64,000 nt of DNA from a phage. The stretch lies in sequence record PZ154895.1. One strand, given 5' to 3'. Position numbers and translations under genes: made by a program. Below, in pieces: positions 325-24,195 of the stretch. Position 1 is the stretch's first letter. Every line of letters begins with the position of its first letter. The notes below the pieces were generated by a model. That model did no database searches. It was not told the DNA's origin and saw only the letters and a list, made by a program, of their open reading frames with translations.

Positions 325-624
325 TTGTTTACAACAGGCTATGGTAGTGATACTATAGCCTTATCAACTAAGGAGAATAAAATGAGATTACAACGCCAGA
401 GCATCAAAGATTCAGAAGTTAGAGGTAAATGGTATTTTAATATCATCGGTAAAGATTCTGAGCTTGTTGAAAAAGCTGAACACCTTTTACGTGATATGGG
501 ATGGGAAGATGAATGCGATGGATGTCCTCTTTATGAAGACGGAGAAAGCGCAGGATTCTGGATTTACCATTCTGACGTTGAACAGTTTAAAGCTGATTGG
601 AAAATTGTGAAAAAGTCTGTTTAA
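325..624 (+). CDS. hypothetical small protein (99 aa)
   Basis: ORF preceded by AGGAG-like RBS and an early-type promoter at 327-356; Cys-rich C-terminal part (C-x2-C). Confidence 0.45.
   Translation: MFTTGYGSDTIALSTKENKMRLQRQSIKDSEVRGKWYFNIIGKDSELVEKAEHLLRDMGWEDECDGCPLYEDGESAGFWIYHSDVEQFKADWKIVKKSV
327..361 (+). promoter_or_regulatory. early-type sigma70 promoter (GTTTAC -35, tactat -10) embedded in inverted repeat aggctat/atagcct
   Basis: gtttac at 327-332, -10-like at 351-356, 7-bp inverted repeat 336-342/355-361. Confidence 0.4.
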
Positions 625-634
625 GGAAAATAAT

Positions 635-880
635 ATGATTTTTGTATTTGAATTTATGAATGATGAATTCGATTATGCAATTTTTAACGCATTGCATAAT
701 CCTGATTTAAGTGAATTTAATGAAATGTTTTCTGACGCTTTGAGTATGTCAGAAGAATACTGTGGAGAATGTCAACGTGTTTGCGTGACAGTTTTTGAAA
801 ACAAAGAAAAGACATATGAAGAATTATTCTTTGACGCTAATAAAGCCACTGAATGGTTTATCGAAAGAGGATTTGTGTAA
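635..880 (+). CDS. hypothetical small protein (81 aa)
   Basis: ORF whose stop overlaps the frd start codon (TAATG). Confidence 0.45.
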
Positions 881-1461
881 TGATTAAATTGGTATTCGCT
901 TATTCTCCGACTAAAACAGTCGAAGGCTTTAATGAATTAGCATTCGGCTTAGGTGATGGTTTACCATGGGGACGAGTTAAAAAGGACCTCCAGAATTTTA
1001 AAGCTCGTACCGAAGGTACAATTATGATTATGGGTGCTAAAACGTTCCAGTCATTGCCTACATTACTTCCCGGTCGTAGACATATTGTAGTGTGTGACCT
1101 TGAGCGTGATTATCCTGTAACTAAAGATGGCGATTTAGCACATTTCTATATTACTTGGGAGCAATATATAGATTACATTTCTGGCGACGAAATTCAAGTA
1201 TCAATTTCTGGCGCGCCATTCGAGACTATGCTTGATCAGAATTCTAATGTTAGCGTAATTGGCGGGCCTGCTTTGTTATATGCTGCATTACCTTATGCGG
1301 ATGAAGTAGTTGTTTCTCGCATCGTTAAAAGGCATCGTGTTAATTCAACGGTTCAATTAGATGCAAGCTTTCTTGATGATATAAGCAAGCGTGAAATGGT
1401 TGAAAGTCATTGGTATAAAATAGATGAAGTAACAACCCTTACGGAATCAGTGTATAAATGA
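880..1461 (+). CDS. frd: dihydrofolate reductase
   Basis: 193 aa; sequence [32 protein letters not shown]... recognised as T4-type DHFR; ends ...TESVYK with TGA inside ATGA. Confidence 0.92.
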
Positions 1462-22079: not shown

Positions 22080-22082
22080 ATC

Positions 22083-24140
22083 ATGGAACTTATTACAGAA
22101 TTATTTGACGGCGCTTCGGCGCCGGTTGTTAACTTAAATCCTAAGCATAAAATACCTCAAATTTTTGCTATTCAAGCTGGTGAAGAAAGTGTGCTTCCTG
22201 GATTTAGATTTTGTACATACACCTCTGGCGGTGATACAAATAAAAACGTTAAGCCAGGCGATAAAATGATGCATATCGTAATGATAGGTGTCAATGAGAA
22301 ACTATCATTAGTTAAACTTAAAAGCTTAGGTGGAAATCCAATTGGTGTCATTAATGCGGTTTTTGATACTGCTCTTCAAACAATGAAACAGTATAAAATT
22401 GACGCATGCCTATTCCGCGTACTAAAAAGTAAAACAAATGGCGCTGCTCGTCAAATTCAAGTTATTGCTGACCGTTTAGTACGTACTAAAGGAGCAGGTC
22501 GATATGTTCTTTTAAAGGAAATCTGGGACTATGATAAAAAGTATGCATATATTATGGTTTACCGTAAAAATGCCAATTTAGAAGACATTCCAGGTGTACC
22601 TCCTATTTCAACTGAGTTATTCACAAAAGTTGAATCAAAGGTTGGTGATGTTTATGTAGACGTTAAAACAGGTAATGCTGTTCCTAAAGCTGTTGCTGTT
22701 GCTGCTTCTATTGCTTTAGAAAATGATAAGCGTACAGATCAAGCTGTTATTCAGAAAACTAAAATTAGTCGTCGATTAGCAGCACAAGCTCAATATTCTA
22801 CTGTCGATGCTTCACTTCAGGGCGATAGCTTCGCTGCTAAGAAATATCAAGAGTTTGAATCTAAAGTTCCGGTATATAAAGCAGAAGGACCAATGAACTC
22901 TGGCGTTATTCAGATTGGTTCAAACTTCAGCAAAGGAGCTATCGGTGGTATGAGAAGTGCTTCTCGTTTTAAATCTAACGATTATGAACTAGAAAGCTTC
23001 CGAAATCATATTGCATTGGCCCATGCACGTTTACGTGATCCATCTATTAAATTACAGAGCGATATAACATATCAAGGTTCTCAGGAATATTTAAAGAATA
23101 AAGAATTCTTTGATTATAAAACCGATAAAATTTTGAGCGATCTTGCTGACATTAATATTTCTAATAGCTTTGATGTTATTAAGAAAATTGTCAATGATTT
23201 AGTTAAAGGTTCTAAAGCCACGCCAGATGAAAAGGTAGCTATTATTCAATTTGTCATGAATGGCATTTATAAATTGATTAATGAGTCTGCTTCTCAAGCG
23301 TATGAATATGCAAGTACTGAAGTACCCCCAAAAGGATTAACTCAGGCTGAGTCCGATGTAATTGAAGATTATTGTGCAGATTCATATGTTGAAATGAACT
23401 CGTTCCTCTTGGGTAAACCAGATTCTACTCGTGAAGAATACATGGAACGAGCTATTAAACACATCGAGACGCTGGATTCTGCATTCGCCAAAGGATCAGT
23501 TCTTCCTCCAGGAACTACGCTTTATCGTGGACAAGAAGTTACTTTTAAAACTTTACGCCATAATATTGAAAATAAAATGTTCTATTTCAAGAACTTCGTA
23601 TCAACATCGCTTAAACCAAATATCTTCGGTGAGTATGGTAAAAACTATATGGCTTTAGATGATTCCAGTGCAGTATTTTCTGGTGAAGGAGAAGGTTCAG
23701 TTGATGCTGAAGATTTAATGCATATGGGTAGTCACTCTGCTTATGCGAATGAAGATGCTGAAACTAGCGTGGGTATGGTAATTAAAGGAGCTGAGCGAAT
23801 CAAAGTTATCGTTCCAGGACATTTATCAGGATTTCCATCAGAAGCTGAAGTTATTTTACCGCGTGGAATTTTGCTGAAGATTAATAAAGTGAGTACGTAC
23901 ATGATGAAAGAAACTGCTTATAATAAGTATCTAATCGAAGGCACAATCGTTCCTCCTTCTGAACAATTAGAAGAATCGGTATATGATGGCGACCATCTAA
24001 TGGAAACTGGTGAAGTTCGTCCAATGGCTGGATTTAATCAATTCCTTGTAGAAGAATCAAAAGAAGAGGAAAACGAAGTTTCTCAAATCTTGGCTTCTTT
24101 GGTTAACATCAACGGAATGTCTAAAAAGTTCAAGATGTAG
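22083..24140 (+). CDS. Alt-like ADP-ribosyltransferase paralog
   Basis: 685 aa; same N-terminal propeptide MELITELFD and same R / STS / E-x-E motifs; diverged central region. Confidence 0.85.
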   Translation: MELITELFDGASAPVVNLNPKHKIPQIFAIQAGEESVLPGFRFCTYTSGGDTNKNVKPGDKMMHIVMIGVNEKLSLVKLKSLGGNPIGVINAVFDTALQTMKQYKIDACLFRVLKSKTNGAARQIQVIADRLVRTKGAGRYVLLKEIWDYDKKYAYIMVYRKNANLEDIPGVPPISTELFTKVESKVGDVYVDVKTGNAVPKAVAVAASIALENDKRTDQAVIQKTKISRRLAAQAQYSTVDASLQGDSFAAKKYQEFESKVPVYKAEGPMNSGVIQIGSNFSKGAIGGMRSASRFKSNDYELESFRNHIALAHARLRDPSIKLQSDITYQGSQEYLKNKEFFDYKTDKILSDLADINISNSFDVIKKIVNDLVKGSKATPDEKVAIIQFVMNGIYKLINESASQAYEYASTEVPPKGLTQAESDVIEDYCADSYVEMNSFLLGKPDSTREEYMERAIKHIETLDSAFAKGSVLPPGTTLYRGQEVTFKTLRHNIENKMFYFKNFVSTSLKPNIFGEYGKNYMALDDSSAVFSGEGEGSVDAEDLMHMGSHSAYANEDAETSVGMVIKGAERIKVIVPGHLSGFPSEAEVILPRGILLKINKVSTYMMKETAYNKYLIEGTIVPPSEQLEESVYDGDHLMETGEVRPMAGFNQFLVEESKEEENEVSQILASLVNINGMSKKFKM

Positions 24141-24195
24141 TTTACAAGTCACTCGTGTTGTGTTATAATAATCTTACTGACATAACATGAGGAAC
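24139..24195 (+). repeat. promoter/leader direct repeat copy B
   Basis: gtttacaagtcactcgtgttgtgttataataatcttactgacataacatgagga; matches 9084-9140. Confidence 0.85.
24140..24169 (+). promoter_or_regulatory. early-type promoter (GTTTAC -35, tataat -10)
   Basis: gtttac 24140-24145, tataat 24164-24169. Confidence 0.55.

Follow-up and report, generated by a model that had tools for sequence, protein, structure and literature searches.

In phages RB49 and phi1, early promoter/stem-loop (PeSL) elements have been described that lie between genes and combine a strong early promoter, AT-rich sequence upstream of it, a stem-loop and the Shine-Dalgarno (SD) sequence of the next gene, the stem-loop lying 'most commonly' between -35 and -10 or over -10, with G-T pairs marked; attenuation of upstream transcription by the stem-loop and modular shuffling mediated by the cassettes were both proposed (Arbiol et al. 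2010, PMC2839356). PeSLs were extended to PST/T4 and nt-1/KVP40, with the PST/T4 consensus TTTACW-N17-TAYWAT (Comeau et al. 2014, PMC4122927). According to these two papers, the elements are repeated in early regions, and mini-circles and indels occur at them. The present analysis concerns six GTTTAC promoters with embedded inverted repeats in a 64,000-nucleotide stretch of phage DNA (sequence record PZ154895.1; the whole stretch is called the window below, and positions refer to it unless T4 or a relative is named), which precede frd.1 (327), alc (9085), cd.2 (12391), gp30.8 (15337), gp30.7 (15729) and alt.-3 (24140), respectively. As PeSL-type cassettes, the six sites are largely of a kind already known in T4-like phages. 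Their repeats are real, exceed chance, are specific to each site, are strand-asymmetric and are maintained in relatives. They are probably composite early-promoter/stem-loop cassettes of PeSL type, in which the hairpin forms in read-through RNA and has two distinguishable uses.

Two further systems are close to these sites. For the T4 genes e, soc, 49 and I-TevI, the SD sequence and/or the AUG is paired in RNA from a distant promoter, and another promoter is located inside the 5'-arm region, whose RNA is without this arm and is translated (Uzan and Miller 2010, PMC3014915). The early-promoter/stem-loop elements flanking the internal-protein (IP) genes of T-even phages, as summarized in PMC2839356 from Repoila et al. 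(1994), are weaker, AT-rich and of variable size, and were discussed as recombination modules.

Structure of the early promoter regions

The window is part of a T4-like (Tequatrovirus) genome, and its first 20 kb match ~500 T4-like phage genomes at ~95% identity. The same build was found at all six promoters (GTTTAC, a spacer of 17-18 nt, TGn and TAnnnT, with A/T-rich sequence upstream, in an intergenic place and of sigma-70 type), and it fits the description of T4 early promoters as UP/-35/TGn/-10. An SD sequence and an ATG are located 40-50 nt farther on at all six promoters, 20-30 nt past the predicted +1, and T4 has early promoters at the orthologous places, the one at 12391 being the 'early promoter Pe133295' of the T4 record. 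At five of the six sites the upstream open reading frame (ORF) stops 2-4 nt before -35 or overlaps it, and no intervening terminator was found there by the terminator scan; before 15337 the upstream ORF stops at 15283, and between it and the promoter lies a canonical terminator. No further GTTTAC promoter was found by the motif scan in 1-24.5 kb of the window.

In the initial annotation, the -10 region of each of these promoters had been placed in the loop of an inverted repeat. Inverted repeats were indeed recovered at all six sites, at four of them as Watson-Crick repeats by the repeat finder (336-346/351-361, 12398-12415/12416-12433, 15351-15358/15379-15386 and 15738-15745/15761-15768), and at 9085 and 24140, where G·U pairs are needed, only on folding, as stems of ~20 bp. 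The 5' arm is inside the -35/-10 spacer at every site. The placement of -10 in the loop had to be given up as a general description: at 327 and 12391 the apex is formed by TGn or by the upstream half of -10, the remaining part of -10 being in the 3' arm, and at 9085, 15337 and 24140 the 3' arm is the SD region, 20-30 nt beyond -10.

For each site, the stretch from the -35 end to the start codon was folded on the sense strand, and z was calculated from 200 dinucleotide shuffles (Table 1). The genome-wide tally against shuffled controls, which had been suggested together with the initial annotation, was run on T4, with early promoter regions defined by motif alone ([GA]TTTAC, N17-18, TAnnnT, then SD and start; n = 39). 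Values of z below -2, -3 and -4 were obtained for 21, 17 and 15 of the 39 regions, respectively, as against 9/121 (z < -3) and 4/121 (z < -4) for other T4 SD+ATG sites (Mann-Whitney p = 2e-6) and 2/150 at both of these thresholds for random 57-mers (Mann-Whitney p = 3e-7). Structure was not found at intragenic motif matches without TGn (T4 47452, 41261 and 3883). Hairpins are strongly enriched at the T4 early promoters, and the enrichment holds against the other SD+ATG sites, the random 57-mers, the shuffles and the arm-swapped chimeras described below. These data confirm that embedded repeats are a general, selected property of about half of the T4-type early promoters.

A seventh early-type promoter of the window (39981-40042, + strand; ATTTAC, N18, TATTAT), whose orthologue is T4 107282 before segD, carries a weak AT-rich repeat that is not significant (z -0.4). 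Directly upstream of this promoter and of the T4 rnh promoter (150763) there is no same-strand gene; these two cases hint that hairpins matter only where read-through occurs.

Site specificity and strand asymmetry

Chimeras were constructed in silico by combining the spacer and -10 of each T4 promoter with the downstream parts of all the others (n = 39). The mean folding energies of cognates and chimeras were -13.1 and -8.2 kcal/mol, respectively; the cognate mean was reached by 0 of 20,000 permutations, and for 13 of the 39 promoters the cognate 3' part was the best partner among all 39. Because the chimeras fold less well than the cognates, the arms of each site are matched only to each other. 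The difference of arm sequences between sites, which had been taken to argue against a single operator-binding protein, is therefore borne out, with arms that are co-adapted within a site and chimeras that fail. A palindromic operator for one DNA-binding protein was rejected, as no half-site is shared across the sites and the chimeras do not pair; a palindromic promoter consensus as the source of the repeats was rejected on the same behaviour of the chimeras.

The T4 sense and antisense folds had means of -13.1 and -9.7 kcal/mol, respectively, and the sense fold was the stronger one in 27/39 (Wilcoxon p = 2e-5); in the window it was more stable at five of six sites, 15729 behaving like an exception (-16.1 vs -15.9 kcal/mol). 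A strand-neutral helix search allowing both transition mismatches was applied to 96 promoters, no two of them identical, which came from T4, the window and ten relatives. The helices contained 52 G·T and 11 A·C mismatches on the sense strand (21 vs 2 in T4, 9 vs 0 in the window), and chance helices in random sense-strand 57-mers contained 915 and 654 (58% G·T), respectively. Since G·T is tolerated, A·C is rare and a cruciform needs both strands paired, a sense-strand RNA hairpin is indicated rather than a cruciform.

Transcription starts were predicted by the usual rule of ~7 nt after -10 (Table 1) and fall inside or just 3' of the repeats; therefore only RNA from upstream would hold both arms, and the hairpin most likely forms only in read-through RNA. 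Of the two structural roles considered initially, hairpins in read-through RNA are favoured by the G·T/A·C asymmetry, the stabler sense folds and the position of the predicted +1 within or after the repeat; cruciform effects on promoter use are spoken against by the same strand asymmetry.

Predicted access to the ribosome-binding site

The free energy of opening the region from -15 to +3 of the start codon was computed for the predicted transcript of each promoter and for the read-through RNA, and the sites fell into two classes (Table 1). At alc, gp30.8 and alt.-3 (class B), the arm encoded by the spacer pairs with the GAGGA or AAGGAG of the downstream gene, with 9-11 bases of the SD region paired, and the +1 predicted from the geometry would sit 3' of the 5' arm. 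At frd.1, cd.2 and gp30.7 (class A), a compact hairpin ends at about -1, the ribosome-binding site is open and SD masking is absent. The opening costs at 9085, 15337 and 24140 are 19.3, 11.9 and 16.4 kcal/mol, with the ranks among the 94 predicted window starts that are listed in Table 1, and the class A genes as a group have ranks 66, 90 and 93. For half of the six sites the prediction is clearer, in that they would mask the ribosome-binding site. The SD sequence as 3' arm at these three sites, like the earlier description of PeSL cassettes, had been missed in the initial annotation and is added here.

When 280 predicted T4 starts were scanned, ranks 1-3 went to alc, alt.-3 and regB (19.3, 18.6 and 18.5 kcal/mol, respectively), and lower values were obtained for segB (17.2), 49 (15.6), e (15.6), I-TevI (14.3) and I-TevII (13.1). 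Inhibitory structures at these last five genes are documented or reported; as the known structures rank high in the scan, the controls were recovered. Costs of at least 12 kcal/mol were found for 7/31 early-promoter-proximal T4 genes vs 11/228 genes without a nearby early promoter or late-promoter motif. Additional costs of at least 5 and at least 8 kcal/mol were contributed by 10/39 and 7/39 T4 early promoters, and by 11.5% and 2.6% of the chimeras, respectively.

It is a tentative reading, which we hold possible without expecting it, that there is a subset of immediate-early genes (alc, gp30.8 and alt.-3 here; in T4 also regB, denV, modB, motB.2, nrdC.8 and ndd.4) with an anti-SD arm in the spacer of their own early promoter, which would be translated only from the transcripts of that promoter and whose synthesis would stop at the early shut-off. 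If this is true, their shut-off despite continuing middle-mode read-through would represent a promoter-gated layer of early translational shut-off that is so far undescribed. Ribosome-site masking by early promoters may not have been described before; it is unmentioned in the 2010 T4 reviews, the older primary literature lying outside that coverage, and a literature search for previous reports of dyad symmetry at early promoters of T4 found none. Nor did an experimental test of such masking turn up.

Orthologous and paralogous sites

Intergenic regions of relatives were taken from IMG/VR and GenBank loci (Mosig-, Gapriver-, Jiaoda-, Karam-, Teguna- and Dhakavirus and the lineage of loci L010 and L016). 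The SD-masking hairpin of alc is kept, with different arms (Table 1), in Tequatro-, Dhaka-, Karam- and Jiaodavirus loci and in the L010/L016 lineage. For 10 distinct alc variants, a set that includes a Tegunavirus class A palindrome and a Mosigvirus locus without spanning hairpin, the cognate folds had a mean of -18.9 kcal/mol vs -11.9 kcal/mol for cross-lineage chimeras. Compensatory double changes were found at two positions among loci L010, L016 and L020 (G-C to A-U and A-U to G-C), and the paralogous T4 cassettes 57990 and 20612 differ by two compensatory changes. A consensus structure was not found by MAFFT and RNAalifold on the alc promoters of several genera, and column-wise counting of covariation was impossible because the arms are out of register between genera. 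At the alc place of Gaprivervirus another ORF is located and the promoter is absent.

Four genera have retained the gp30.7 arms (GGTACAGG/CCTGTACC), with G·U variants, the relatives including Dhaka-, Gapriver- and Mosigvirus, and an SD-masking hairpin was found instead at the gp30.7 place of Karamvirus and L010. The class A hairpins of the window have no common register (for example, the pair sums of 327 and 12391 differ).

A third arrangement, a small hairpin wholly in the spacer (e.g. CCACA-AGGA-TGTGG) in which the extended -10 TGn region serves as 3' arm, was observed at T4 2458, 50973 and 167086 and in relatives (L017 13761 and 14944; L018 29839; L020 29489). It replaces the spanning hairpin at Mosigvirus alc, and at alt.-3 in L017 (Mosigvirus), L018 (Gaprivervirus) and L020 (Karamvirus). 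T4 also has a family of near-identical long early-promoter cassettes (tttcacaaaacgGTTTAC...TACTATacaactatcaactactgatacggatttggagaataaaATG; 167086, 163673, 146875, 70696, 55384 and 27080), which are mostly without a spanning hairpin and carry a small hairpin in the 5' untranslated region (UTR) (atcaactactgat).

Table 1. Early promoter cassettes and canonical terminators of the window, and alc arms in different lineages. MFE, minimum free energy; RBS, ribosome-binding site; ddG, extra opening cost predicted in read-through RNA; rank, by opening cost among 94 predicted window starts.
Feature	Position	Strand	Promoter elements	Hairpin or stem; remarks	MFE (kcal/mol)	z	Predicted +1	SD	ATG	Class	ddG (kcal/mol)	Rank
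frd.1 early promoter cassette	327..384	+	-35 GTTTAC 327-332; TGn plus -10 TACTAT 351-356	arms 336-346 / 351-361, apex GTGA	-15.6	-4.15	~363	371-375	382	A, RBS open	+2.2	
alc early promoter cassette	9085..9145	+	-35 9085-9090; -10 TATAGT 9109-9114	hairpin 9091-9141; 5' arm 9091-9109 in spacer; 3' arm 9124-9141 including SD	-23.9	-6.89	~9121	GAGGA 9134-9138	9143	B, RBS predicted to be masked in read-through RNA	+15.8	1
cd.2 early promoter cassette (= T4 Pe133295)	12391..12453	+	-35 12391-12396; -10 TATTAT 12415-12420	12401-12413 / 12418-12430, three G·U pairs	-17.2	-5.95	~12427		12451	A	-1.8	
gp30.8 early promoter cassette	15337..15396	+	-35 15337-15342; -10 TAGTAT 15361-15366	stem 15350-15358 / 15379-15387, 3' arm over SD	-12.1	-2.95	~15373	AAGGAG	15394	B	+10.2	4
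gp30.7 early promoter cassette	15729..15796	+	-35 15729-15734; -10 TATTAT 15752-15757	15737-15750 / 15755-15769, core GGTACAGG / CCTGTACC	-16.1	-4.02	~15764		15794	A	-0.3	
alt.-3 early promoter cassette	24140..24203	+	-35 24140-24145, over stop codon of upstream alt paralogue; -10 TATAAT 24164-24169	stem 24152-24165 / 24178-24191, G·U pairs	-19.6	-4.98	~24176	GAGGA 24188-24192	24201	B	+13.8	3
Canonical intrinsic terminator after 30.9	15287..15308	+		CUUCGG tetraloop stem, then T-run; directly upstream of promoter 15337, separate element								
Canonical intrinsic terminator	5589-5610	+		~30 nt past nrdA stop codon (5557), inside overlapping ORF 5557-6288								
alc arms, Tequatrovirus				agtccctcgtg... 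/ ...catgaggact								
alc arms, Bp7				tctcctcat / atgaggaga								
alc arms, AS6				tctccatttg / caaatggaga								
alc arms, KPN6				atcctcatcag / ctgatgaggat								
alc arms, L010 and L016				atctccgttt / aaacggagat								

Gene order and neighbouring features

Compared with NC_000866, the genes run in reverse orientation, in the order frd.1, frd, td, nrdA, nrdB, denA, rnlA, alc, pseT, cd, 31, rIII, 30.x, ligase, alt and alt.-3, and late baseplate genes follow downstream of alt.-3 on the opposite strand. The window differs from T4 in that the td intron with I-TevI and the nrdB intron are both lacking (2422/2424 and 6961/6964, respectively) and in that there are extra ORFs at 1470-1829 (between frd and td; region 1467-1871) and at 10513-10815 (region 10520-10814). 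A 243-aa ORF (5557-6288), weakly similar to mobB and mobD regions, is located in place of T4 mobE, and two full-length alt paralogues (19983-24140) are present where T4 has alt and the alt.-1/-2 remnants.

The second-highest opening cost of the window (18.7 kcal/mol) was obtained in the denA start region (7470-7520), at an ATG just inside denA, and the same spot in T4 (~137927-137951) is among the top-ranked ones there with 16.5 kcal/mol. These values suggest that a strong structure surrounds the start of denA, where nrdB and denA adjoin; the true start may differ from the predicted one.

In the T4 record (133300-133313; L004 33300-33313), the 14 nt between the cd.2 repeat arms are given as 'inverted complement of previously reported sequence'. 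The loop-inverted version of this sequence (window 12401-12430) was detected by flank-anchored BLAST in 1/606 records, only in the old T4 entry X03007.1, where it most likely reflects an error of early sequencing at the hairpin, not a flip that occurred in nature.

In an Rfam search of 1-26000, nothing relevant to the six sites was found; a weak match to Atu_C8 (15239-15322, E = 0.01) corresponds to the terminator hairpin at 15287-15308 and is probably due to chance.

Discussion

In the explanation that we favour, the gap of ~60 nt would hold a strong promoter for the host RNA polymerase (UP, -35 GTTTAC, TGn and -10), and its free positions, namely the -35/-10 spacer and the sequence after -10, would have been moulded into an inverted repeat specific to the site. 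The transcript of the promoter itself would start ~7 nt past -10, inside or just 3' of the repeat, and the hairpin would be formed only in upstream-derived RNA. For alc, gp30.8 and alt.-3, the read-through RNA would have a masked ribosome-binding site and the promoter-proximal RNA an open one. For frd.1, cd.2 and gp30.7, the hairpin would be located at the 3' end of the upstream cistron in polycistronic RNA, and its function there might be attenuation, 3'-end protection or processing, as has been proposed for PeSL stem-loops.

Several points weigh against this explanation. The start positions and the folding in vivo, as well as the functional consequences for both classes, are inferred from the sequence; a search for T4 Term-seq or 5'-end data sets found none. 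About half of T4's early promoters lack a significant hairpin, so the feature is not obligatory. At alc, a compact non-masking 11-bp palindrome around -10 is present in Tegunavirus, and in Mosigvirus only a small hairpin within the spacer, the spanning one being absent; masking is therefore not universally conserved at this gene. At alt.-3, where the upstream stop codon overlaps -35, a ribosome that terminates on the upstream gene might unwind the stem at its base and give translational coupling. The terminator role of one G/C-rich RB49-type PeSL stem-loop is not simply transferable to the present hairpins, which have no T-runs. The pooled mismatch count over 96 promoters includes related sequences, and a C-to-T bias that accompanies transcription and acts on the sense strand might inflate the G·T excess; the same-strand control with chance helices argues that such a bias cannot explain the whole effect.

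As an alternative, the cassettes might be mainly recombination or mobility modules in the sense of PeSL 'modular shuffling', with the hairpin as a recombination site or a by-product and without RNA function. The window's homology to T4 begins at 368 and picks up again at 24121, each time at the border of a cassette, and loci L006, L007 and L009 have another ORF attached directly behind the cd.2 cassette; homology breakpoints against T4 or these three loci were thus found at 3/6 cassettes, which are small numbers. The alc and alt.-3 cassettes (9085-9138 and 24140-24193) are direct repeats with 94.4% identity over 54 nt at a distance of 15 kb, a matching pair is present in T4 (136336 and 123093), and the direct repeat is a possible substrate for deletion or for the formation of the mini-circles which, like indels, were reported at PeSLs (PMC2839356, PMC4122927). 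However, homologous exchange needs shared sequence and not intramolecular pairing, the arms differ between sites and are co-adapted within them, the alc arms co-vary across genera, and the asymmetry in G·U pairs speaks for selection on sense RNA. We regard mobility without RNA function as unlikely, while a mobility role is compatible with read-through hairpins and does not exclude them.

The original PeSL proposal, in which the hairpins would be terminators or attenuators of upstream early transcription rather than translational or stability elements, appears quite improbable for these sites. It is in line with it that the hairpins are located directly past upstream stop codons, which end 2-4 nt before -35, and that one RB49-type PeSL stem-loop cut downstream lacZ expression about as much as rrnB T1. 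Against it, none of the six hairpins is an intrinsic terminator: a T-run follows none of them, the stem at 24140 included, and none is in the terminator-like list for 1-20000, although the scan does detect the UUCG terminator at 15287-15308. Moreover, the stems are rich in A/U and include G·U pairs, and in class B the 3' arms fall specifically on SD sequences.

The repeats might also act as DNA, cruciform extrusion or altered melting of -10 tuning promoter strength or the early-promoter shut-off, whose mechanism is incompletely understood. They are centred on the promoter melting region, and among the class A repeats there are nearly perfect palindromes whose sense and antisense energies are alike (window 15729; T4 65799 and 57990). 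We consider action as DNA highly improbable in view of the strong G·T vs A·C asymmetry in T4 and the window, the much weaker antisense folds at 5/6 sites, the loops of 12-20 nt at 9085, 15337, 15729 and 24140, which disfavour extrusion, and the class B 3' arms, which are in the 5' UTR/SD region far from the promoter.

Chance products of the AT-rich background or of a partly palindromic promoter consensus were tested and rejected as next to negligible, for although helices of at least 7 Watson-Crick pairs arise in 17% of random 57-mers and the repeat at 39981 is weak, z goes down to -6.9, the enrichment holds against three kinds of controls, arm-swapped chimeras lose the structure and orthologous sites retain pairing despite changed arms.

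If the read-through hairpins act as proposed, free positions of compact phage promoters (spacer and discriminator) would double as RNA structure, and the same DNA would be read as a promoter by RNA polymerase and as a hairpin in the RNA arriving from upstream. A testable reason would be provided why the synthesis of some immediate-early proteins ceases after a few minutes, the candidates being T4 alc, alt.-3 and regB, the strongest predicted masks of the genome. In annotation, such inverted repeats at T4-like promoters should be taken neither for operators nor for terminators, and in phage engineering, shifting or deleting an early promoter may mask or unmask the downstream gene.

Comparison with known systems

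Intercistronic stabiliser hairpins of the REP type are stable hairpins right after a stop codon in polycistronic RNA, without a T-run. The window hairpins resemble them in adjoining the upstream stop codon and in lacking a T-run, but the stabilisers are not built from a promoter. As regards the IP-gene elements, the same -10-bracketing repeats are carried by the T4 ipI, ipII and ipIII promoters (73939, 65799 and 66498, respectively), whereas in the summary of Repoila et al. (1994) in PMC2839356 these elements are described only for IP loci.

With the PeSLs, the six sites share the early promoter, the A/T-rich upstream sequence, the stem-loop in or adjoining the promoter and the intergenic place, and they fit TTTACW-N17-TAYWAT. 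They differ in three respects. Stems of the RB49 type are rich in G/C (GGGG...CCCC), and termination was shown for one of them, whereas the window stems are A/U-rich with G·U pairs and without a T-run. The PST/T4 stem-loops are placed 'just upstream' of the promoter in the 2014 figure legend (PMC4122927), whereas the window 5' arm is inside the spacer. Pairing between spacer and SD, which was found at three window sites, is not in the PeSL papers.

Like e, soc, 49 and I-TevI, the genes alc, gp30.8 and alt.-3 would have their SD sequence masked in read-through RNA and their own predicted transcript without the 5' arm, and in the same scan the predicted opening costs of alc, alt.-3 and regB equal or exceed those of e, 49 and I-TevI. 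The internal promoters of the e/soc/49/I-TevI set are late (gp55) promoters, by which translation is delayed to the late period, whereas those of the window are early promoters of sigma-70 type; the class B sites are therefore a variant of that mechanism and not members of the documented set. The effect predicted for class B is the reverse of late gating, in that translation would be limited to the period in which the early promoter fires.

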